A DNA stretch of 26,486 nucleotides from the NCBI GenBank assembly GCA_046583315.1, contig JAYGCN010000062.1:1-26486 (forward strand). Direction: 5' to 3'. Positions within the stretch are counted from its first letter, which is position 1, and each line of letters starts with the position of its first letter. The position numbers were made by a program, and so were the translations under genes. The notes beneath the pieces are model-generated. The model was not told the origin of the DNA and searched no databases. It saw only the letters and a program-made list of their open reading frames with translations. The stretch is from Candidatus Hydrogenedentota bacterium. Its GTDB lineage: Bacteria; Hydrogenedentota; Hydrogenedentia; Hydrogenedentales; GCA-2746185. Shown here in pieces: positions 3,382-26,462 of this stretch.

Positions 3382-3876
3382 ATGAAATTTCACATTCTCG
3401 CAGTCGCGTTGTTAATTTTAGTACCCACTTTTGCTCAGGCGGACATCTTGCCGAACACGAACAAGTTCAAGTCCGACCCGCGTAATGTCGAGGGCGAAAA
3501 TTGGGAAGGTCCGCATGTGCCGGAGATTATGACGGAAGGCGACTGGAAGAAGGTTATCGCAAAATCGAAGGAAGCGCCTGTTTTCGTGTTCAAACACAGC
3601 ACGGAATGCCCGGTATCGGCTGGAGCGGCCTATCGCACGAACACTTTCATCAGCAAAGAAGCCACAAAAGACACGCCGAATTTTTACTTTGTCAAAGTCA
3701 TCGAGCGGAAACCGGTATCGAAGACCATCGAGGCGAGCACGAAGGTTAAACATGAATCTCCCCAGCTGCTCTTGCTCAAGGATGGCAAAGTGCTGTGGAA
3801 TACTTCCCATGAGAAAATTACAGCGGATAGCATCAAGAAAGCAGTTGCTCAAAACGTAGAAGTGGGCTTAGACTAA
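3382..3876 (+). CDS. ytxJ: BrxC/YtxJ-family monothiol thioredoxin-fold protein (DUF2847) with N-terminal signal peptide
   Basis: FKHSTECPVS and VKHESPQLLLLKDGKVLWNTSH motifs; N-terminus MKFHILAVALLILVPTFAQA. Confidence 0.85.
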   Translation: MKFHILAVALLILVPTFAQADILPNTNKFKSDPRNVEGENWEGPHVPEIMTEGDWKKVIAKSKEAPVFVFKHSTECPVSAGAAYRTNTFISKEATKDTPNFYFVKVIERKPVSKTIEASTKVKHESPQLLLLKDGKVLWNTSHEKITADSIKKAVAQNVEVGLD

Positions 3877-4346: not shown

Positions 4347-5216
4347 CTACCAGCGAATCTTCTCTGGAAAAAATTCCGCGATGAGTTCCTGATAAAACGG
4401 TTTCAACTCTTTTACCTTCGGGGGTTCATCGGATTTGGAATAGAGATCGTAGGGGTTGAATGCGCGCACCCATTTAAACATTTCTTTGTCGTGATCCGTC
4501 ATGAGATGTTCGTAAGCGTTCTCGCGATGGGCCGAATAGAAGCTATGGTAGCGAACGATGTATCGCGCGGGTTCGGGCAGGTAATCCTTGGTCACGAGGT
4601 ACATGTATTCGTCGTGACCCCAGGACATGGTGACCTTGTCGAGTCCACAACCGGCTTCGTAAATACCACATTCCGTCTGCAGTTCCGCACGTTTCAAATC
4701 TGGACTGTCCGCAAAGAATTTCGGATACACAATCTTGTCGGAGAACGCGCAACCAAGCGGGAAGGTATCCCCCACCACCGCCCATTGCGGTTCGTCGTTG
4801 AAGCAGAGGATTTTTCCGAGGTCGTGAATCAGGCCCGTCAGTATGAACCAGCGGGGATGCCCATCGGCGCGAATCGCTTCGGCGGTCTGCAGTAGGTGTT
4901 CGATTTGCGAAACGTCTGTGTCCGGATCGCTGTCGTCGACGAGCTCGTTCAGATATTCGCAGGCTTCCCAGAGTCCCATCTCTTTGCGATTTAACGGCGC
5001 ATACTCATCGCGTTTCCCGCGGGCGAATTCCAGGGTTTGATGTATATGGTTCAGGCGATAGAATTCAGCGACCGTATCGCGCACGGGGTCGTCGTAATTT
5101 CGAAAGTCATCTTTCGCCTTCCCGTTGAAATCGCCTTTCTCGGGATAACGTTCGAGCAGATCGTCTTCCCAGACTTCGAGCGACTCCAAGGGCCCTTTTG
5201 ATATATCGCGTGACAT
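4347..5216 (-). CDS. myo-Inositol oxygenase (MIOX, HD-domain di-iron enzyme)
   Basis: [69 protein letters not shown] 5216 chosen for a GGAGG RBS 8 nt upstream. Confidence 0.95.
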
Positions 5217-5275
5217 GGTTAGTACCTCCAATGCGTTCGTCGCTATTTTACTGCGTTTTACTGCTAAACCACAAT

Positions 5276-5394: not shown

Positions 5395-5772
5395 ATGGAT
5401 GAGGGTGGACATTTTGATGCGCTCCGGCAGGTGCTTGTGCAGGCTTGGTCGTTGCCGGAGGATGTGGATGCTTCGCGGGATCGACTTCTCGCGGCGTTGG
5501 CCGATCGTGTTTCAGAGCTGTTGGACAAGGACATGCACCGACTCAGCACGGCGATGTACACGCTGGATATCGATGAATCGCGATTTCAGGACGCTTTGGA
5601 TCTGCGCGGGGTGGACACGAAGGCTACAGCCGTGGCGGAACTCATTCTGGAACGCGAACTGCAGAAAATCCTAACACGGCGACGCTATGAGCAGATGAAG
5701 CGTAACTCGACGCAAGATGAAGCTGAGCAACCGGTCATCGACGTCCGGCATAAACGGCTTCCGGGCGATTAA
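5395..5772 (+). CDS. Hypothetical alpha-helical protein
   Basis: 125-aa ATG ORF with MYTLDIDE...AELILERELQKILTRRRY; stop overlaps the convergent gene's stop. Confidence 0.75.
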   Translation: MDEGGHFDALRQVLVQAWSLPEDVDASRDRLLAALADRVSELLDKDMHRLSTAMYTLDIDESRFQDALDLRGVDTKATAVAELILERELQKILTRRRYEQMKRNSTQDEAEQPVIDVRHKRLPGD

Positions 5773-7466
5773 TGCTTGCCCTGCAACATGCGAATCGCCA
5801 TGTCGCGTACTTGTGTGGCGGCGGCGGGACCTTGGGATACTGATTCCTCGTAGGCATCGATGCGAAAATCGTAGGGCGGCACCATGTAGCCGATTTGGTC
5901 GTTCGCGAGACCGATTAGCACGCGCGGGAAGCCATCCATCTGTTCGAGAATCTCGAAACTCACTTCAGGCAAAAGCTCGCCGGGTAGGGTCACGAATTGC
6001 GCGTCGCCGAGTTGAACGTAAATCATGTCCGTGGTGATGCGTCCGCGATAAATGGAACGGATGCCGGATTCGTAGCGTTCTTTGAAGTTCGGATTCGTCA
6101 TGGGAATTTGCAGGAGTCGCTGATCGACGGAGAACTTGTTTTCGACCATGGGTTGTGTCGTCGGCACCATTTCTTTCACGATAGAGGCCAATTGCAGTCC
6201 CATTTCCTCGGCTGATTCGTGGGTTCGTGCACGGTTGTCGCCGCTGACCATACCGCCGACGGCGCCGTTCAGGAACACAGCCAGCCCTCCCCCATCCCGT
6301 GTGATCTGATCACACATATAACCCGGAAAATCAGCGCTTACTTCGCGGGAACCTTTCTCAAGTGACTCCACGTGGCACGCAAAATTCACCATGGTCGTGA
6401 TGACCTTTCCGTTCTTGCCAATCGCTTGTATCAGCGAGATTGTCGGGTCCAGAACGCCCGGGTTGCGTGCATTGCGAAACAGATCTTGCACCCGAATGCC
6501 GTCCATGGGAAGCTCTTTGGAGGCGGCGCGCAACTCGGTAATTTCTTCGAGATCTCCCAAGGCTTCTTTCACGCTTGCGATCACCTGACTCTGGATGTGG
6601 GCGATGTATTCGGTCGGGTAATGTCCGTATACACCAATGGTGTCGCCTGTTGCGTGGTTGTGTGACATGCCGAAGATGAGATGGTTTACGCCCAGCGCCT
6701 TGGCGCCGTCGCGCATGACGTTCACGTCTTTCCAACCCATACCAAAATTGTCTGCACCGACGAAGGCGACCGATTCATCGTCATTCTTGAACACGGCGAT
6801 ACGCACTTTGAGATCATCGTGAATTTTGTAACGGTGTGGCAGCCAGTCCTCGCCCTGCGGAGAAATTACTTTTTCCGATATGCCTACTTTCATTCCTGAC
6901 CAGTTTGCTTTTTTCGCGGGTGCAGGTTGAGGGCCTTGACGCAGATGGCTCAGATCCATGAGTTTTCGTTCACCGGCGGGCACGCGCGTGGTGGTGTGAG
7001 GGAAATAGGCGACACCGGTTGTATTTCCGTCTGACGTTATCGAAAACCGCAGGCCTTCCTTTGTGTAGTCCAGCATTCGCCAGGTGGCCATGCGCAATTC
7101 GTATTCGGGCTCGCCCATTGCCGCGCGAATTTTCGATTCCGTCTCGTATCCTTTCGGAATGGATGCGGCATCAATATTGGCCAGGTGCGCGTCGGGACTT
7201 TTGCCGCCCATGTGCAACACGTCATACAGGCCGGGACGGTCCTTCGCCGGGTAATAGAGTTTATAGCTGTACCATTTTGATTCGAATTCAGGTTCGCCAA
7301 GGAGTTCCCGAACTTTGGCATGATTGTCGGCACCGGGAGTCAATCCGTTAAAGGTGAGAGCGCGTGCGGGTGCATCCTCCGGCACCATGCCCTTGACCGC
7401 CTGCGCGGAAGCCGAAACTGAGGTCCACAGCAAACTTATCATTCCAATCCAGATTATTGATCGCAT
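5769..7466 (-). CDS. Exported protein with N-terminal repeats and a neutral/alkaline ceramidase-like domain
   Basis: ATG 7466 with GAGGAG RBS and signal peptide MRSIIWIGMISLLWTSVSASAQA; motifs IHDDLKVR, SHNHATGD, VNFACHVE, VSADFPG, FLNGAVGG, TLPGE, GLANDQIGY, YEE. Confidence 0.75.
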   Translation of the reverse strand: MRSIIWIGMISLLWTSVSASAQAVKGMVPEDAPARALTFNGLTPGADNHAKVRELLGEPEFESKWYSYKLYYPAKDRPGLYDVLHMGGKSPDAHLANIDAASIPKGYETESKIRAAMGEPEYELRMATWRMLDYTKEGLRFSITSDGNTTGVAYFPHTTTRVPAGERKLMDLSHLRQGPQPAPAKKANWSGMKVGISEKVISPQGEDWLPHRYKIHDDLKVRIAVFKNDDESVAFVGADNFGMGWKDVNVMRDGAKALGVNHLIFGMSHNHATGDTIGVYGHYPTEYIAHIQSQVIASVKEALGDLEEITELRAASKELPMDGIRVQDLFRNARNPGVLDPTISLIQAIGKNGKVITTMVNFACHVESLEKGSREVSADFPGYMCDQITRDGGGLAVFLNGAVGGMVSGDNRARTHESAEEMGLQLASIVKEMVPTTQPMVENKFSVDQRLLQIPMTNPNFKERYESGIRSIYRGRITTDMIYVQLGDAQFVTLPGELLPEVSFEILEQMDGFPRVLIGLANDQIGYMVPPYDFRIDAYEESVSQGPAAATQVRDMAIRMLQGKH

Positions 7467-7592
7467 CGTGCTTGACTCCTCATTTCCAGAATTGATCGCC
7501 TTGGCAGTGCAGTGCGCAGGCATTGTTGGTCGCATTCGATTTACGATAGGTAACGGATACCAAGGTATCGACCTATTGCGATCATAGTACAC

Positions 7593-7631
7593 AAAAAATC
7601 CGCAGGAACGAAACGCGTTCCTGCGGATTTT
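7593..7631 (-). terminator. Rho-independent terminator of the beta-oxidation gene
   Basis: 16-bp perfect stem AAAATCCGCAGGAACG/CGTTCCTGCGGATTTT ending in a T-run on the minus strand. Confidence 0.85.
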
Positions 7632-7658
7632 CAATTTCAGCCTTGTTTAAGGCACGTT

Positions 7659-13236: not shown

Positions 13237-14739
13237 ATGGCGACAATCATCGCTGGTATTGGACAGCAGAAAAGTTTTCAAGCGGTAATCGACGTTGCCG
13301 AAGAGGAAATGGGTAAGACGGAGGGAAAACCCCGTCGAATTAAAGGGCGAAGTGATAGTGTAGACTTTACGATTGATCGGACTGAATTTGACACCAAATT
13401 CGAGCGATACAAGTTTCGGATTGAGGCAAACGGTAATACGTTACAGCGAATTCACGATGCGGCAGATGCGGCACCAGACGGCATCTGCGAATACGTTTAC
13501 AACGAGGATGAAAATCAGACGACGTTCACCCTTCCCTGCGAGAACGCATCGGATGTAGACTACGAAGTCGTTCGCGCAACAGTCGAAACGATTTGCAAGC
13601 ACATTCGCATTCCAGAAATCTGGCGATTTGACGGTTCCGAATACGACACGACACCCCCGAGCATAGAACTGCTGTTCCGTGCGTTAATCCAATACAAGGC
13701 GAGTGATATTCACCTGTCACCCGGCATGAAACCGATCTTTCGCATCGACAACGAAATGCTGGTTTCTGATCTCATGCCTCCGCTTTCGGGCCCGCAGATC
13801 TATGCCCTGATCAAACAGCTTTCTCCCGATGAAGCCTGGGAACACTTTCTTAAGGACCATCAGAATTCCTTCGGCTTTCATCAGAAAGGCATCGGCTACG
13901 CACGCACCTCAGCGTTTATGAAGGCAGGACAGCCGCATCTCACCTTTCGCTATCACCCGGAAACGATACCCTCCTTCGACGATCTCAATATGCCAAGCGA
14001 TATCATGGGCGAGCTGGCGAAACTGCATAATGGACTCGTCTGTATCGTCGGTAACACGGGATGCGGTAAATCGTCCACTAACGCGGCCCTTCTCGATTGG
14101 ATCAATACCAATCGTAAACTGCATATTCTCACTCTCGAAGATCCTGTCGAATACCACCACCACAACAAGAAATCCATCGTCTCTCAACGCAATATGGGGA
14201 CGGACGTAAGTGCCTTCGACATTGGCGTAGAAGGAGCCTTGCGTCACGATCCGGATGTAATTCTTGTGGGCGAAATGCGTGATGCCGGAACCATTCGTGC
14301 AGCCATCGGTGCGGCCGCAACAGGCCACCTGGTACTCACGACGCTTCACGCCAGCAACGCGAGCTCCGTGATTGACAGAATATGTAGCTTCTTCGACCCT
14401 ATCGAACGTGAACTCGTGCGCTCCCAGTTGTGCGAATGTATACGTGTCGTCATCTGCCAATTACTGGTGGAGAAAAAAGGCGGAGGTCGCGTCCCGGCGC
14501 TCGAAGTCATGTTCAATGACGTAAAACAGATATCGAAATCGATTATCGAAGGTAATACAAACGGGATTCGCCTGGGCATGCAGCAGACCTTGTCCAAATC
14601 TCAGCTGTTCGAGCATTATCTTTATGATCGTTGGAAAGAAGATTTGATTACGCTTGAAACAGCCCAATTACATGCCCCGGATCTCAGCATGTTTGAGCAA
14701 ATCAGGATGGGCACGTACACCGTTCCGAAACTTGCCTAA
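13237..14739 (+). CDS. pilT: PilT/PilU-family type IV pilus retraction ATPase with ~140-aa N-terminal extension
   Basis: ASDIHL, Walker A GNTGCGKSST, LEDPVEY, DPDVILVGEMRD, TGHLVLTTLH, GMQ; GGGAG RBS. Confidence 0.85.
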   Translation: MATIIAGIGQQKSFQAVIDVAEEEMGKTEGKPRRIKGRSDSVDFTIDRTEFDTKFERYKFRIEANGNTLQRIHDAADAAPDGICEYVYNEDENQTTFTLPCENASDVDYEVVRATVETICKHIRIPEIWRFDGSEYDTTPPSIELLFRALIQYKASDIHLSPGMKPIFRIDNEMLVSDLMPPLSGPQIYALIKQLSPDEAWEHFLKDHQNSFGFHQKGIGYARTSAFMKAGQPHLTFRYHPETIPSFDDLNMPSDIMGELAKLHNGLVCIVGNTGCGKSSTNAALLDWINTNRKLHILTLEDPVEYHHHNKKSIVSQRNMGTDVSAFDIGVEGALRHDPDVILVGEMRDAGTIRAAIGAAATGHLVLTTLHASNASSVIDRICSFFDPIERELVRSQLCECIRVVICQLLVEKKGGGRVPALEVMFNDVKQISKSIIEGNTNGIRLGMQQTLSKSQLFEHYLYDRWKEDLITLETAQLHAPDLSMFEQIRMGTYTVPKLA

Positions 14740-14809: not shown

Positions 14810-15008
14810 GCACTTTCCAGTGCATTGTTAATTTGGCTCGGCAGTACCGAAAAACACTCTAAGTCTTTAATTTTATTTATGTTACAGCTAATTTCGAACG
14901 AAGCACACGAAGCACAATTCAACTGAATCGCCACACTATGTACACACAAATGTAAAGTTTTGCACGAGTCCGTTCTAACTCATAGAGCGAATGAGGATTA
15001 CAACAAAA

Positions 15009-15563
15009 ATGCGAATTATAGCGGGCACGGCCAAGGGCATCCCACTGGTTACGCCGAAAGGGAGGGAAATCCGCCCCACCTTGGATCGGGTGCGCGAATC
15101 GGTGTTCAACATCATTGCTCCGGCGCTCGATGAGGAGACCGTGTTCCTAGACCTCTTTACCGGTACCGGCGCGAATGGGCTGGAGGCACTTAGCCGGGGG
15201 GGCGCGAGATCTGTATTCGTGGATTCATCTCCCCAATCACTCGAAATTTCCCGCAAGAACGCGGCTAAAGCCCGTCTCAGTGATCGCGCCACGTTCGTTC
15301 GTATGACACTTCCCGATAACCTCAGCAAAGTGGTGCGGCAGCACGGCCCGGCGGATATTGTCTACGCTGATCCACCTTTTGATTTCGATGCTTACGAGGT
15401 ATTGCTCAAAGTCATCGCAGAGGCTGAACCCCATACGCCGCAACAGCTTGTGATCGTGGAGCACCCTTCTAGGACAACCCTTCTGGAACAGGTATCCGGC
15501 CTCAATCAATACAGAACAGAAACCTATGGGAGGGCCTCGATTTCATTTTATCGACGCGGCTGA
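15009..15563 (+). CDS. rsmD: 16S rRNA m2G966 methyltransferase RsmD
   Basis: MRIIAGTAKG...IRPTLDRVRESVFNI, LDLFTGTGANGLEALSRG, DPPF, VEH, YG. Confidence 0.95.
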   Translation: MRIIAGTAKGIPLVTPKGREIRPTLDRVRESVFNIIAPALDEETVFLDLFTGTGANGLEALSRGGARSVFVDSSPQSLEISRKNAAKARLSDRATFVRMTLPDNLSKVVRQHGPADIVYADPPFDFDAYEVLLKVIAEAEPHTPQQLVIVEHPSRTTLLEQVSGLNQYRTETYGRASISFYRRG

Positions 15564-15683
15564 AAACGCTCTAAACCGATACTTCGTCTATATGGTATAG
15601 GTGGATGATAATCAGACTATAAAATTGGGCTATATTGTGATACAATAATCCGATTATCTGGTAAATGAGATAGGAAAATCCTT

Positions 15684-16133
15684 ATGCGATGTCCATTTTG
15701 CAACAATACTGATGCTAAAGTTGTCGATTCCCGTTCTTCGAAGGATGGGGATTCTATCCGTCGTCGACGTGAGTGCCTTTCGTGCCAGCGTCGGTACACG
15801 ACTTATGAACGCATCGAAGAAATCGCACAGATGGTCATCAAGAAAGATGGACGCCGCGAAGCCTTTGATCGTTGGAAATTGAAGGCCGGAATTCTCAAGG
15901 CTATTGAGAAGCGACCGGTGTCGCTTGATCAGGTGGAGTCGCTGATTGACGAAGTCGAACGCAAGCTGTTCAGCTCGACGGATCATGAAGTGTCAACTGA
16001 TACGATTGGCGAAGTGGTGATGAACAAGATGAAAAACATTGATGAGGTGGCGTATGTCCGGTTCGCATCGGTGTATCGCCAGTTCAAAGATCTCAATGAG
16101 TTTATGACTGAGCTTAAGGGAATGCTGACGTAG
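15684..16133 (+). CDS. nrdR: Transcriptional repressor NrdR
   Basis: MRCPFC...VVDSR...IRRRREC..C..RYTTYE Zn ribbon, ATP-cone VIKKDGRRE, DEVAYVRFASVYRQFKD. Confidence 0.98.
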   Translation: MRCPFCNNTDAKVVDSRSSKDGDSIRRRRECLSCQRRYTTYERIEEIAQMVIKKDGRREAFDRWKLKAGILKAIEKRPVSLDQVESLIDEVERKLFSSTDHEVSTDTIGEVVMNKMKNIDEVAYVRFASVYRQFKDLNEFMTELKGMLT

Positions 16134-16251: not shown

Positions 16252-18423
16252 ATGGATAAACCGGAATGGAGTGATCGCCCGATGCCGCAACAGGGCGCGC
16301 TAGATATCCAGCTGTCGATCCCCCATTCTGTTCTACCCGTATCCGAGACGCTTCAATCGATTATCAAACGGGACAATCGTACAGCTCCCTTCGACACACT
16401 CAAAATTTCGGAAGCGATTTTTCAGGCGGCGCAGAGTATTGGTGGTGATGATCGCGCGTTGTCCCAGTCGCTCGCTGCAAGTGTTTCACTGTATTTGGCC
16501 AAGCAGCAGCGGAATGAGCCGCTGAACGTGACGCACGTGGACGACGCGGTGGAACGGGTTCTCATTGAGATGGGTCATGAACGCACGGCATTGGCTTACG
16601 TGCAGCATCGTGACAAACGTCATACGGCGGAGGGCCTTCCCACGCAGGACGCGCGTTCGGTACGTGATGCGCTGATGGAATGGCGCTGGAACCGCTCGAC
16701 GAATGTTGACCGTCCCCTGGATGAATTGGATGTGGCGATTGATGAATTAGGCCTTGCTGAATCGGAACATGAGTCAGTTCGCAAGGCGGTTCACGAATCG
16801 CTGTCCAGTCTGCCTACCACGACACCGTCGGTCGCGTTGATCCACGAGCTGGTGCGCGCCCACTCGAATTTATCTTCGGAGAATGCGGCGAGGCAGTTGC
16901 ATCTGAACTTGGACCAACTGGAGGACGCGCTTTCGGGCACGTCGAATCCTTCACACGATCTGATGACGCCTGGCAGTTCGGATGTCGCGATTGCACGGCG
17001 TGTGAAAGAGGCCTATGCCCTGAATCGCCTTTACAGTCCGGATGTGGTCAATGCACATATTCGCGGTGATTTGCATCTGCATCATCTTGAACAGGCCGAT
17101 CGCATTGATTCGCTTACCCTACATCCCGATACGGTCAAACGTTTCGGATCGGTCGCCCGCTGGATGGATTCACCGAGCCCCGCACGCAAGATTGAAACCC
17201 TTATCGAAGACCTTGTTGAAAGCACGCGTATTCTTCAGGAGTATTGCGCGGAATCGATTCAATGGGAAGCGATTAATTATGCACTTGCGCCCTATCTGGT
17301 CGAGTTTGATGACGTACACCTGCACGCGGTATCGCGACAGCTTATTGACGGGCTCATTGATACGGCGTCTTCGTCCCAAACATGTACGATCAAGTTGCAC
17401 ATCAGCTGGGACGTGCCGCATGACTTGCAGGGCATTGATGCAATGGGGCCGAATGGCGCGAACACTGGAAAACCGTATCAGGCGTATCAAAAGACTGCGC
17501 AAGATTTCGCGCACATGTTATTGCAGGCGTTGCGGGAAACGGCCGTGGATGCGGATGCGTCTTCCCATGTGATGCCAGTCGTTTCTCCGCCGGCTCCAGG
17601 ACCGCGCAATGAAGCGACGGTTTCGTATCTGAATCGTATTGCCTTGTGCGGACTCGTGCTGGACACGATTGAATACCGGTGCGACGCGGATTCGCCGTTG
17701 CTGCCGTTTCAGGAACAGACGTTGCATCCGAAGTCGGTTGTGGCACAGCAAATTACGTTAAACCTGCCGCGACTGGCCTTTGGTGCGCAGGAAGGCCATC
17801 ATTTCTGGACGGCACTGGATCATTTGTTCGACGTCTCAACGGCGGCCGTCCTGGAAAAACGCCGGTTCGTCTGCGAACTGGCGCGCCGCAAGAAAAATGG
17901 TCCTTACAGTTATTTGACGATTCAACACAATGCGCAGGGCTTCGCGGATCTCGAACGTTCGTCGGCGTTGCTTGCGATGTGCGGATTGCCGGAGTGTTCG
18001 GCGGCGTTGCAATCGATTGATGAATTTCAGGGTCAATCGCTGAGCACCATTCAGGAATCCATTGTCGCGTATATCGACGCTCGATGCCAGGCCTGGACCG
18101 CGCAATCGGATGTCGTATTGCAGGTCACGGCCGCCGGACTCGATACCGTCGCCGAGCGATTAACGGGAATTGACAGTACCCACTTCGATGCGGTCAAGAC
18201 ATCCGAATCGTATGGCTACGGGCTGACTCCTCCCTCGGACACGAATAGCTATCGTGAATTCGAGAAACAGCTCGCCACGCTGGCGCGTCACCAATCCTGG
18301 TTGCACGGTAGCACGCCCATCCAACGTCCCGATGCGGACACGACTTTTCCGGAACAGTTGAGCCATACGCTCGAAGATTTTTTCAAGGGTCAGCCGGACG
18401 TGACAATTCGCCTGCAGGGCTAA
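16252..18423 (+). CDS. Degenerate class III ribonucleotide reductase (NrdD-like) protein with ATP-cone; predicted catalytically inactive
   Basis: ATP-cone IIKRDNRTAPFD...VDDAVERVLIEMGH; NrdD-like segments AHIRGDLHLHHL, NYALAPYL, AMGPNG.NTGKPY, ITLNLPRLA, GLPEC; no CCR/GCR, Zn ribbon or RxxGY; start 16252 or 16282. Confidence 0.8.
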   Translation: MDKPEWSDRPMPQQGALDIQLSIPHSVLPVSETLQSIIKRDNRTAPFDTLKISEAIFQAAQSIGGDDRALSQSLAASVSLYLAKQQRNEPLNVTHVDDAVERVLIEMGHERTALAYVQHRDKRHTAEGLPTQDARSVRDALMEWRWNRSTNVDRPLDELDVAIDELGLAESEHESVRKAVHESLSSLPTTTPSVALIHELVRAHSNLSSENAARQLHLNLDQLEDALSGTSNPSHDLMTPGSSDVAIARRVKEAYALNRLYSPDVVNAHIRGDLHLHHLEQADRIDSLTLHPDTVKRFGSVARWMDSPSPARKIETLIEDLVESTRILQEYCAESIQWEAINYALAPYLVEFDDVHLHAVSRQLIDGLIDTASSSQTCTIKLHISWDVPHDLQGIDAMGPNGANTGKPYQAYQKTAQDFAHMLLQALRETAVDADASSHVMPVVSPPAPGPRNEATVSYLNRIALCGLVLDTIEYRCDADSPLLPFQEQTLHPKSVVAQQITLNLPRLAFGAQEGHHFWTALDHLFDVSTAAVLEKRRFVCELARRKKNGPYSYLTIQHNAQGFADLERSSALLAMCGLPECSAALQSIDEFQGQSLSTIQESIVAYIDARCQAWTAQSDVVLQVTAAGLDTVAERLTGIDSTHFDAVKTSESYGYGLTPPSDTNSYREFEKQLATLARHQSWLHGSTPIQRPDADTTFPEQLSHTLEDFFKGQPDVTIRLQG

Positions 18424-18471
18424 CTTACCTTTCTTTCGGGTGAAAGAAAGGTAAGACCAAAGAAAGCCGAT
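18424..18471. repeat. REP-like palindromic unit (possible terminator) directly after the nrdD-like stop
   Basis: Perfect 14-bp stem CTTACCTTTCTTTC-GGGT-GAAAGAAAGGTAAG plus tail ACCAAAGAAAGCCGAT. Confidence 0.85.
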
Positions 18472-18582: not shown

Positions 18583-18912
18583 ATGTCTAAACAGATTCCT
18601 GAGCAGTTTGACGGTGTGAGCGTGGTGTGTAAGGCGAATGTTTACTTTGATGGGAAGGTCGTGAGCCATACGATCATCATGCCGGACGGGTCGAATAAAT
18701 CTACGGGCCTGATGTATGCCGGGGCGTATACCTTCAACACGGACGCGGCTGAGCGCATGGATATTATCGCTGGCGAGTGTCGCGTGAAGCTTGCAGGGGA
18801 GGACGAAACGAAATCCTATGCCGCGGGGAGCTTTTTTGAGGTGAACGCGAATTCTTCGTTTGATATCGAAATCGAAGATGGTATCGCGGAGTATGTGTGT
18901 AGCTACTTGTAA
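18583..18912 (+). CDS. ppnP: Pyrimidine/purine nucleoside phosphorylase PpnP (DUF1255/YaiE)
   Basis: KANVYFDGKVVSH, YTFNTDAAERM, F.V.ANSSF, C-terminal YVCSY; GGAGG RBS before ATG 18583. Confidence 0.93.
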   Translation: MSKQIPEQFDGVSVVCKANVYFDGKVVSHTIIMPDGSNKSTGLMYAGAYTFNTDAAERMDIIAGECRVKLAGEDETKSYAAGSFFEVNANSSFDIEIEDGIAEYVCSYL

Positions 18913-19037: not shown

Positions 19038-19099
19038 CGCCCGAAGGGCGCATCGGTTCTTTTTGGCCTTACCTTTTTCTTTCCCAAGAAAAAGGTAAG
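19038..19099. repeat. REP-like palindromic unit directly after the guaA stop, inverted relative to 18424-18471
   Basis: CGCCC-GAA-GGGCG, CGGTTCTTTTTGG, perfect 14-bp stem CTTACCTTTTTCTT-TCCC-AAGAAAAAGGTAAG; 19054-19074 is identical to 5343-5363. Confidence 0.85.
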
Positions 19100-25996: not shown

Positions 25997-26025
25997 TTGA
26001 CATGACTGTTACCCTGTGATATGCT
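25997..26025 (+). promoter_or_regulatory. Sigma70-type promoter
   Basis: TTGACA-N17-TATGCT with extended -10 TG. Confidence 0.7.
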
Positions 26026-26078
26026 CAAGATTGTTCAGGAATGGTTACATTTGTTCCGTATTCAGGAGGCATTTTGCT

Positions 26079-26462
26079 GTGAAATTTCTACCCCGTGTCG
26101 CTTCGACTCTACTGGCTGGTCTGTTGATAGTGGCAATTTCGTTGTCTTCCAGCGTTGCAACTGCCCAGAGTTACGATCCGGATCAGGACATCCAGCAGCC
26201 GGGCGTTTTTGAGAAACGTGTGGAGAAACTTGGACGTGGCCTTAGCAATATTCTTTTTGGCTGGTCCGAAATTCCTGTGACTTGGGATCGAAAGATGAGA
26301 CAGGGTAAATCCTTTACGTACCTGTTCAGCACGGCACCGGTAATGGGTGCGGTTCGCGCCTTCATGCGTACAGGAATAGGGGTCTACGAGGTATTCACCT
26401 TCCCGGTTGACACCGGCGACCGCAATTACGAACCCATTCTTGAGCCTGAGTATTTGTTCTAG
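26079..26462 (+). CDS. Exosortase system-associated protein, TIGR04073-like
   Basis: KLGRGLSNILFGWSEIP...RTGIGVYEVFTFP...PILEPEY; GTG 26079 after CAGGAGG; signal peptide. Confidence 0.8.
   Translation: MKFLPRVASTLLAGLLIVAISLSSSVATAQSYDPDQDIQQPGVFEKRVEKLGRGLSNILFGWSEIPVTWDRKMRQGKSFTYLFSTAPVMGAVRAFMRTGIGVYEVFTFPVDTGDRNYEPILEPEYLF

Follow-up and report, generated by a model that had tools for sequence, protein, structure and literature searches.

A catalytically stripped NrdD homologue of Candidatus Hydrogenedentota with a conserved tail motif resembling the clamp-binding motif of Hda

The window analysed here, a stretch of 26,486 nucleotides from a Candidatus Hydrogenedentota bacterium, contains a gene derived from nrdD, which codes for the class III (anaerobic) ribonucleotide reductase (RNR). 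As had been predicted, nrdR lies ahead of it. The locus contains the following features:

14991 to 15563, plus strand: rsmD, 16S rRNA m2G966 methyltransferase (TIGR00095 over cut-off), which marks the ancestral rsmD-nrdR-nrdD locus
15583 to 15629, plus strand: weak, degenerate NrdR-box-like pair, 31 bp apart (scores 7.1 and 7.3, below the pair threshold)
15684 to 16133, plus strand: nrdR, intact repressor with Zn ribbon and ATP-cone (Pfam; TIGR00244, 206 bits, over cut-off)
16252 to 18423, plus strand: catalytically dead NrdD-derived protein, 723 aa (open frame, Pfam, model, Foldseek)
18424 to 18455, no strand assigned: REP-like hairpin with 14-bp arms, directly after the stop codon (15 blastn matches in the genome, itself included)
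18583 to 18912, plus strand: ppnP-like pyrimidine/purine nucleoside phosphorylase (Pfam PF06865), a neighbour only

The only widely common neighbours in the neighbourhood clustering are a pilT-like gene, rsmD and nrdR; the clustering found no conserved replication gene beside the locus, and the ppnP-like gene is absent from the list of conserved neighbours. rsmD is upstream of the gene in 22 of the 88 genomes examined, both outgroups included.

The reading frame is uninterrupted and comprises 723 aa counted from the ATG at 16252, in agreement with the predicted frame of about 720 aa with an N-terminal ATP-cone. The ORF list starts the frame at an upstream TTG (16153), but the orthologues begin at the ATG, which is therefore taken as the start. 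Pfam places an ATP-cone at residues 36-124 and gives a weak NRDD match (83 bits), while the NCBIfam models for NrdD, which have cut-offs of 326-764, give 73-106 bits. The AlphaFold2 model (mean pLDDT 86.9) contains the alpha/beta barrel of 10 strands, and the top Foldseek matches are all class III NrdD proteins (E 6.5e-22). Identity to the intact NrdD of outgroup G002 is 29% over 652 columns. The NrdD landmarks listed in the original prediction are present at confirmed positions, i.e. HLHHL at 275-279, SPARK at 309-313 and ITLNLPR at 501-507. The following features can be distinguished within the gene:

16294 to 16326, plus strand: N-terminal motif G15-A-L-D-I-Q20-L-S-I-P-H25 in a disordered tail, candidate beta-clamp-binding motif
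16357 to 16623, plus strand: ATP-cone 1 (residues 36-124), the best-kept domain (Pfam PF03477, E 1e-13)
16699 to 16917, plus strand: degenerate second cone and linker (about residues 150-222; alignment to outgroups G001 and G002; helical in the model)
16939 to 16965, plus strand: position of the NxN active-site flap, motif lost (NKENAN in G001 and G002, unconserved in the dead family)
17056 to 17115, plus strand: eroded HxHD triphosphate site and lost strand-A Cys (H269..H275-L-H277-H278; S287)
17671 to 17724, plus strand: finger-loop remnant with the CCR tip deleted (alignment of 95 family members with intact outgroups)
18130 to 18222, plus strand: sites where the PAES loop (here AAGLDT) and YTNS (here YGYG) would stand, each of them degenerate (alignment)

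The N-terminal motif (Q-L-x-[LFI]-P), the degenerate second cone with its linker and the loss of the NxN flap had been missed by the original prediction.

The gene encodes an NrdD homologue that is stripped of the whole catalytic apparatus. The CCR columns of the finger loop are gapped in 93-95 of the 95 family members, where the finger segment has shrunk to 5-16 aa as compared to 29 aa in the intact outgroups; the alignment places C477 of the present protein at the end of the strand preceding this segment, which has no common Cys column. The cysteine of the YC motif of intact relatives is replaced by S287 (within RIDSL, 284-288), and the family has S, A, G, Q, T or R at this position but never Cys. 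AAGLDT occupies the PAES position (627-632) and YGYG the YTNS position (654-657), as had been read from the DNA alone. At the HxHD site, H269 is found in 94 of 95 members, H275 in 84, H277 in 68 and D278 in 36; the NxN flap, HxHD and PAES are named as substrate-binding elements of class III RNR in section 10 of PMC11226230. The protein ends on the last barrel strand, immediately N-terminal of the Zn site, again as predicted. Truncation by the abutting hairpin was considered and rejected because the orthologues have this same end point. None of the 88 dead-NrdD loci fetched contains a finger or glycyl motif (84 complete, 3 cut by contig ends and 1 with an early TGA).

The missing parts do not appear to be supplied from elsewhere in the genome. 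A six-frame scan for a stand-alone glycyl domain turned up 14 motif matches that look like chance and lack any Zn-site context, and the Pfam NRDD model matched no other gene. The window has no nrdG, as had been noted, and the genome (96.7% complete) has no match over cut-off to TIGR02495, the single NrdG model used. A separate intact nrdDG, which the original prediction had proposed to look for, was not found by these two models. The dead NrdD is not the sole RNR of the genome, an idea rejected when TIGR02505 identified an intact monomeric class II NrdJ after thyX; a PF02867 search of the genome had given no match. Two PF00268 matches look R2lox-like and are without an alpha subunit.

Within the order, a separate intact NrdD accompanies the dead form in 68 of its 124 carriers. 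In the remaining 56, no class III RNR scored over cut-off; 36 of these reach a completeness of at least 90%, among them the single-contig genome G068. Such numbers bear on the possibility that the protein is an inhibitory or structural partner of an active class III RNR, or one half of a split enzyme whose other half acts in trans. The barrel through which dimers form is intact, and the 68 carriers could provide a partner. However, the 56 other carriers show no such RNR over cut-off, NrdG was not found here or in any of three such genomes tested, no stand-alone glycyl domain was detected, and a glycyl radical would find no acceptor once the finger Cys is gone. We regard this explanation as very improbable indeed, and for the present genome it is largely refuted; the dominant-negative RNR subunit suggested earlier loses ground on account of the same 56 carriers. 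A new non-radical enzyme or a nucleotide buffer might instead use the leftover histidines of the triphosphate site, as H269, G272, H275, D283, R284, R507, R636, D641 and Y654 are retained in 84-94 of 95 members. However, all of these residues are also ancestral, the barrel has acquired no new invariant polar residue, and decay has reached H277, D278, the PAES loop and the flap, which makes either role very improbable.

Orthologues of the dead form are present in 124 of the 133 genomes of the order, i.e. the relatives within the order share the dead form. In two outgroup genomes (G001 and G002) the same rsmD-nrdR site is occupied by an intact nrdR-nrdD-nrdG (loci L069 and L070), which argues that the enzyme died in place. 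The 16 dead members tested form one clade (SH-aLRT 100) in a tree from which 48 of 119 rows were left out as long branches or near-copies. Dead NrdDs also occur in Blastocatellia and other lineages, without any such tail motif, and the hypothesis that all dead NrdDs share one origin was rejected (AU test on 35 rows, p about 1e-117, with the group picked after a tree was seen).

The median dN/dS is 0.15 (27 of 29 pairs scorable) and does not exceed 0.22 in the 10 pairs with dS < 1; these figures come from other lineages, the lineage of this protein being saturated. Some observations would suit a decaying pseudogene: dN/dS is about twice that of intact NrdD (0.02-0.10) and reaches 0.42 in one genus, an orthologue was not identified in five genomes that are at least 92% complete, and in G037, a genome of the same genus, a TGA interrupts the gene. 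The absences and the TGA indicate that the protein is dispensable. Against decay, open frames with the same end point persist across 13 families, dN/dS is well below 1 and a new conserved motif has been gained. Judged from these comparisons, the dead NrdD is not a case of recent decay and is under purifying selection across the order, in line with the non-enzymatic role proposed by the original prediction. The pseudogene reading is refuted at the family level, and its overall probability is negligible.

Another proposed role, that of an NrdR co-regulator, would have the protein tune transcription of the working RNR genes via cone-cone contacts. Of 135 genomes, 126 contain NrdR, an NrdR-box pair accompanies the working thyX-nrdJ operon, and clear box pairs (scored against a consensus) lie at the same place as the weak pair seen here in 11 of the 26 nrdR-adjacent relatives and in both outgroups. 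The original prediction had proposed a search for orthologues with the same losses beside nrdR; the finger and glycyl motifs are missing from all 88 loci, but nrdR adjoins only 26 of them. The other 62 are not adjacent, some perhaps because of contig breaks, and none of them has a box pair within 350 bp. Since this adjacency goes back to the intact ancestral operon, and the tail motif would be left unexplained, we find co-regulation quite improbable and the earlier suggestion weakened. Overall, the original interpretation is partly supported.

In cone 1, residues K39, R40, K51, I52, Y116 and R123 correspond to nucleotide contacts of StNrdD. The contacts expected of an ATP-cone sensor are K/R in the hairpin, K/I in helix 1 and Y/Y/R/R in helix 4. 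Among the 95 family members, K39 is found in 89, R40 in 91, K51 in 86, I52 in 84, Y116 in 83, R123 in 77 and R127 in 68, and the present protein has six of these seven. Its changed contacts are Q79 to D97, Y101 to H119 and R109 to E127. The residues that contact phosphate and ribose are retained in 77-91 of 95, far more than the mean for the barrel. Erosion has affected cone site 2 and cone 2 in the sub-lineage of this protein, where the beta-hairpin of the second cone, present in most of the dead family, is gone. An ATP/dATP sensor role appears plausible because the cone retains most of its nucleotide-binding residues.

The second well-conserved element is the motif in the N-terminal tail, about 16 residues N-terminal of cone 1. 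Residues 1-30 have pLDDT < 50 and the monomer model leaves the tail unfolded. G15 is conserved in 88 of 95 members, D18 and Q20 in 91 each, L/M21 in 91 and F/L/I23 in 93. The conservation of the motif (0.70) is comparable to that of cone 1 (0.67), while the flanking tail (0.25/0.40) and the barrel (0.44-0.46) are lower. The pattern occurs in 87 of 95 tails, as against a mean of 4.6 and a maximum of 11 in shuffled tails, and in none of 32 intact NrdDs. The variants include QLSLPL, QMSLPL, QLELW and QLSFP, with QLSIPH in the protein studied. It was found that these resemble the clamp-binding motif, whose consensus (Q-phi-x-L-F or Q-phi-x-L-x-L) and affinity in Hda are given in 10.64898/2026.05.27.728225. 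There are 25 strict hexamers (nine of them exactly QLSLPL as in Hda), 15 loose hexamers, 4 pentamers, 35 motifs with Q-phi-x-F followed by a non-consensus residue (QLSFPA type), 10 outside both published consensuses, QLSIPH among them, and 6 tails scored motif-less, two of which are start mis-calls. One genus has the pentamer form QLELW instead, and members P0050 and P0072 have the exact pentamer consensus QLSLF. A second QxxLF-type motif lies upstream in 10 of 89 tails (shuffled mean 0.2). Note that about half of the family, the present protein included, departs from the published consensus, and that short patterns of this kind have 30-67 chance matches in this proteome. A search of the ESM Atlas with residues 1-36 gave unnamed hits only, all under 0.9.

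On the side of the clamp, the pocket residues named G174 and M362 in PMC5397184 (here G173 and M367) are invariant in 30 of 30 clamps, and in the present DnaN an Arg replaces the His of TDGHR found in solved clamps. Canonical pentamers are found in MutS of the phylum (QMYLF/QLLLF/QLPLF, 6 of 6 relatives) and in DnaE (QTSLF/QFSLF/QSSLF/QISLF, 5 of 5 relatives); a loose regular expression found none in the DinB-like, PolA, MutL or LigA proteins of this genome. The Gln is missing from the tails of four members of one genus, although MutS of that genus has it. That motif and clamp co-evolved in family f7 was not supported, since MutS there retains its Gln.

We speculate, somewhat short of even confidence, that the protein is an RNR-derived ATP/dATP sensor that docks on the DnaN sliding clamp. 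Its ancestor would be the order's anaerobic RNR, of the double-cone, CCR-finger type, whose radical chemistry was probably lost once, early and in place, after other RNRs had taken over dNTP synthesis, the dead protein then being retained as a nucleotide-sensing adaptor. It presumably remains a dimer like NrdD, ATP or dATP would bind to cone 1, and the tail may dock in the hydrophobic pocket of DnaN as the tail of Hda does. The cones of NrdD change position from the ATP to the dATP state, and the nucleotide state could therefore set how the two tails are presented to two clamp pockets. The protein could compete with or gate other clamp clients, coupling the ATP/dATP ratio to replication or repair. 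That the cone switch controls clamp occupancy and links nucleotide pools to the replisome is a more tentative proposal still.

The tail might, however, bind a non-clamp partner, such as a protease adaptor, DnaA, some metabolic enzyme or the other subunit of its dimer. The extended motif E-G-x-F-D-x-Q-L-x-[FL]-P is longer than published clamp motifs, its E-G-x-F-D part has no counterpart in the clamp consensus, the last consensus position is failed by about half of the family, and the dead NrdDs of Blastocatellia and other lineages persist without it. On the other hand, the variants alternate between both known clamp-motif forms, extra QxxLF copies are enriched in the same tails, and the tail is unfolded in the monomer model; we consider a nucleotide-sensing pseudoenzyme with such a different partner unlikely, though worth keeping in mind. 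Alternatively, the protein could sit on the clamp as a scaffold or decoy, its nucleotide binding being incidental or structural only. The motif is as conserved as the cone, and the erosion of site 2 and cone 2 would agree with this, but the retention of the phosphate and ribose contacts described above would not, and we hold it to be distinctly unlikely.

It is useful to compare the proposed clamp-docking sensor to known systems. Firstly, its intact kin are the class III NrdDs with a CCR finger (nearest G001 and G002; solved StNrdD 9d3x, PcNrdD 8p23 and TmNrdD 4coj), with which it shares the 10-stranded barrel, the N-terminal ATP-cone with two-nucleotide residues and the rsmD-nrdR locus. In contrast to these, it is without the finger Cys, strand-A Cys, NxN flap, PAES, YTNS, Zn site, glycyl loop and NrdG, and it adds the N-terminal motif. 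Secondly, Hda/HdaA, the clamp-bound DnaA regulator, likewise has an N-terminal QL[SP]LPL-type motif in a flexible tail before a nucleotide-binding domain (PMC3836487 and PMC5397184). The dead NrdD has neither an AAA+ domain nor an arginine finger (Pfam and fold searches), its body being an ATP-cone and an RNR barrel; the likeness is one of tail sequence, and action on DnaA is a feature of Hda. Thirdly, M45 of MCMV carries an N-terminal interaction motif. It is one of the inactive betaherpesvirus R1 proteins (also HCMV UL45 and HHV-6B RNR), inactive RNR large subunits retained for protein interactions according to PMC5469499 and PMC11772975. These are viral, class I-derived and aimed at host immune signalling, whereas the dead NrdD is chromosomal, bacterial and class III-derived and keeps its ATP-cone. 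Mammalian RNR-alpha is also a dATP sensor acting on DNA synthesis apart from catalysis, yet, according to 10.1101/830745, it is a moonlighting active eukaryotic enzyme that acts through ZRANB3 and not through a clamp motif of its own. Finally, NrdR uses an ATP-cone as a stand-alone ATP/dATP sensor, but its output is a DNA-binding Zn ribbon that the dead NrdD does not have.

A search of the open PMC/bioRxiv literature for a dead NrdD, or for an RNR with a clamp motif, gave nothing relevant, and supplements of RNR surveys (e.g. PMC9531940) may list such sequences. The coupling of dNTP supply to the replication fork in bacteria has long been under debate (e.g. PMC2826317). If the clamp reading is true, the dead NrdD would be a dedicated link from the nucleotide pool to the replisome, combining the body of an RNR with a tail like that of Hda, and a bacterial class III case would join the inactive-RNR scaffolds known from herpesviruses. 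The separate dead NrdDs of Blastocatellia and other lineages would then mean that the RNR scaffold has repeatedly given rise to bacterial pseudoenzymes that sense nucleotides. A check of docking on the clamp would take two purified proteins and one peptide, and culture of the host is unnecessary for it. The dead NrdDs are currently annotated as anaerobic RNRs, and 56 of the 124 genomes could therefore be miscredited with class III activity and anaerobic dNTP synthesis.

The reading frame at 16252-18423 (+ strand) is uninterrupted and encodes 723 aa, in agreement with the original prediction of an intact ORF of about 720 aa, and the sequence landmarks quoted there are all found in their places. 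The proposed HMM check matched an ATP-cone at residues 36-124 and, weakly, NRDD (both Pfam), while every NCBIfam NrdD model stayed far below its own cut-off. The AlphaFold2 model, based on an alignment of 95 orthologues, has a mean pLDDT of 86.9 with residues 1-30 disordered, and its top structural matches are class III ribonucleotide reductases (RNRs). When the 95 orthologues are aligned with the intact NrdD of outgroup genome G002, 93-95 of them have gaps at the CCR columns, and the finger loop is cut from 29 to 5-16 residues; some Cys occurs within this segment in 24/95 sequences, at scattered positions. The strand-A Cys, the NxN flap and the PAES loop are absent, YTNS has become YT[PT]G, and HxHD is eroded (roles of these elements as given in the accessible part of PMC11226230). 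Judged from these motifs, the protein is almost certainly not an RNR.

The source genome G000 (96.7% complete, 5.4% contamination) contains no second NRDD match, no PF02867 match and no NrdG above cut-off, i.e. the separate intact nrdDG that the prediction had proposed to look for did not appear. A six-frame scan of this genome also gave no stand-alone glycyl/Zn domain, which rules against a glycyl domain supplied in trans. Since neither NrdG nor such a domain was found, the dead gene is without a completing partner. On contig C350 (1197-4124, L007), thyX is followed by an intact monomeric class II RNR, with an NrdR-box pair upstream near position 787 (scored against a consensus), and the dead gene is therefore dispensable for dNTP synthesis. 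Two ferritin-like PF00268 proteins of G000 (C136:9378-9986, L005; C46:25458-26099, L006) are probably R2lox-type oxidases; no class I alpha subunit was found there.

A first search gave eight orthologues with 45-67% identity, one labelled Ca. Hydrogenedentota by its source; seven are complete, all with an identical C-terminal end point. Among 135 phylum genomes searched, 133 belong to the window's order, and 124 of these yielded an orthologue; none was identified in five others that are at least 92% complete, and the remaining four comprise one equivocal case and three genomes 66-78% complete. Neither a finger-loop nor a glycyl motif is present in any of the 88 loci fetched from 86 genomes (three run off the contig, G037 has an early TGA; further carriers are represented by profile scores only), so that none of these loci holds a full-length active NrdD. 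Beyond the order, the NrdDs of outgroups G001 and G002 are complete (flap, YC, CCR finger, PAES, YTNS, Zn site, RVTGY), lie in the order nrdR-nrdD-nrdG, and have the same rsmD-nrdR surroundings as the dead gene. Past the glycyl domain, these two intact proteins (L069, L070) continue into an additional C-terminal segment that is glutaredoxin-like and contains a CxxC. A tree was computed from 71 rows (48 of 119 excluded) over 470 barrel columns, without the finger loop. It groups the order's 16 dead members on a single branch (SH-aLRT 100) nested in the clade containing G001/G002, the exact sister being ambiguous. All this is most simply explained by a single inactivation in place, after which nrdG was lost.

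The dN/dS check (Nei-Gojobori, 29 pairs; two saturated, including the sole pair involving G000) gave values well below 1 for the dead NrdDs, namely 0.06-0.42 with a median of 0.15 in 27 pairs, and 0.06-0.22 in the ten pairs having dS < 1. Intact NrdDs gave 0.02-0.10 (10 of 12 pairs). The dead gene is clearly under purifying selection, with a constraint about twofold looser, and its sequence record makes it very probable that it is retained for a non-catalytic role.

Two of the roles originally suggested fare poorly in these genomes. Firstly, a dominant-negative subunit requires an active NrdD, hence its absence in carriers counts against this role: 56 of the 124 carriers, including 36 with a completeness of at least 90%, have none above cut-off, and class I/II RNRs serve instead in several of the 56. 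Secondly, co-regulation with NrdR was argued from adjacency to nrdR, and the dead gene does adjoin nrdR in 26 of the 88 loci, but this adjacency is inherited. Box pairs lie upstream of nrdR in 11 of the 26 adjacent loci and in both outgroups, but in 0/62 separated loci; those of the window are weak. Another NrdR-box-like pair, with a high score, precedes mraZ (G000:C114:9455) and may be chance or the MraZ operator.

Cone 1 is the best-preserved domain of the dead family. Contacts transferred by alignment from StNrdD (accessible part of PMC12662201) are retained in the 95 sequences as follows: K39 in 89, R40 in 91, K51 in 86, I52 in 84, Y116 in 83, R123 in 77 and R127 in 68. The window's protein is a diverged member, with three contacts replaced by D97, H119 and E127 and a second cone lacking the hairpin that most members retain. 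We consider it likely that the cone binds adenine nucleotides.

About 16 residues ahead of the cone, the disordered tail carries the motif E-G-x-[FLY]-D-x-Q-[LM]-x-[FLI]-P, with a column conservation of 0.70 vs 0.25 and 0.40 in the flanking tail. The core pattern occurs in 87/95 tails (91 by alignment column) vs 4.6 in shuffles, and in 0/32 intact NrdDs; the G001 NrdD has a loosely similar NQPLFL. Two genomes, G085 (L095/L096) and G119 (L106/L107), hold two copies of the dead gene, all with the motif. Clamp-binding motifs take the forms Q-phi-x-L-F and Q-phi-x-L-x-L, and Hda QLSLPL binds at 0.44 uM (10.64898/2026.05.27.728225 and PMC3836487, as far as accessible). Exact QLSLPL is found in nine family members and the strict hexamer fits 25; one genus uses QLELW, two proteins of the wider search have QLSLF, and a second QxxLF-type motif occurs in 10/89 tails (shuffle mean 0.2). 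What speaks most strongly for a clamp motif is that the family switches between the two known forms at a single position. On the other side, 45/95, including the window's QLSIPH, deviate at the last position, the Gln is missing from four members, and such patterns match by chance 30-67 times in the G000 proteome. The clamp itself looks normal by sequence: G173 and M367 (G174 and M362 in the available text of PMC5397184) are invariant in 30 clamps, and canonical pentamers are present in the phylum's MutS and DnaE. TDGHR has become TDGRR here, which might alter motif preference. On balance we lean towards DnaN binding by the tail in the family as a whole, regard the matter as evenly poised for the window's variant, and hold the complete nucleotide-gated clamp mechanism as a tentative proposal, somewhat less probable than either. 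A short DnaA-domain-III-like protein (G000:C286:9551-10093) has no obvious clamp motif.

A profile search over 1.8 billion representatives gave, among the best 150 matches, about 30 other NrdD homologues without finger, glycyl or tail motifs, some retaining the Zn site and others stopping before it. One dead clade extends throughout Blastocatellia (about 40 loci), with one cone and the Zn site kept, the radical residues gone, and none beside nrdR; in L166-L207 (Blastocatellia and mislabelled bins) the class-wide loss concerns the finger Cys and the radical Gly, and the gene often lies opposite purN. Additional dead homologues of NrdD in other lineages, at varied stages of loss, are P0091, P0095, P0097, P0108, P0132, P0135, P0138, P0147 and P0152-P0155, one named Deltaproteobacteria and one Ca. 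Woesearchaeota. A single origin for all dead NrdDs was rejected, and pseudo-NrdDs are therefore recurrent. The clamp-type tail was found only in the Hydrogenedentota-order family among the dead forms examined. P0010 and P0012, CCR-finger NrdDs ending past the Zn site without RxxGY, are possible split enzymes. Searches of open-access main texts turned up no publication about a dead NrdD, a Hydrogenedentes RNR or a clamp-motif RNR, and the accessible part of PMC9531940 mentions none of them. Inactive herpesvirus R1 proteins and the RNR-alpha/ZRANB3 axis, as described in the source excerpts available, are analogues.

Other features of the window are:
3382-3876, + strand, BrxC monothiol bacilliredoxin domain after an apparent signal peptide
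4347-5231, - strand, myo-inositol oxygenase family protein (Pfam MIOX, 368 bits)
5769-7634, - strand, 621-aa ORF, no Pfam match at E 0.001
13237-14739, + strand, PilT-like ATPase (T2SSE), N-terminally extended
18424-18455 and 19068-19099, REP-like hairpin, two inverted copies either side of ppnP
26016-26462, + strand, 148-aa ORF, no Pfam match at E 0.001

The MIOX family is most familiar from eukaryotes. The PilT-like ATPase gene belongs to a block upstream of rsmD-nrdR shared by about 11 genomes, and the REP-like hairpin has about 14 more matches elsewhere in G000.
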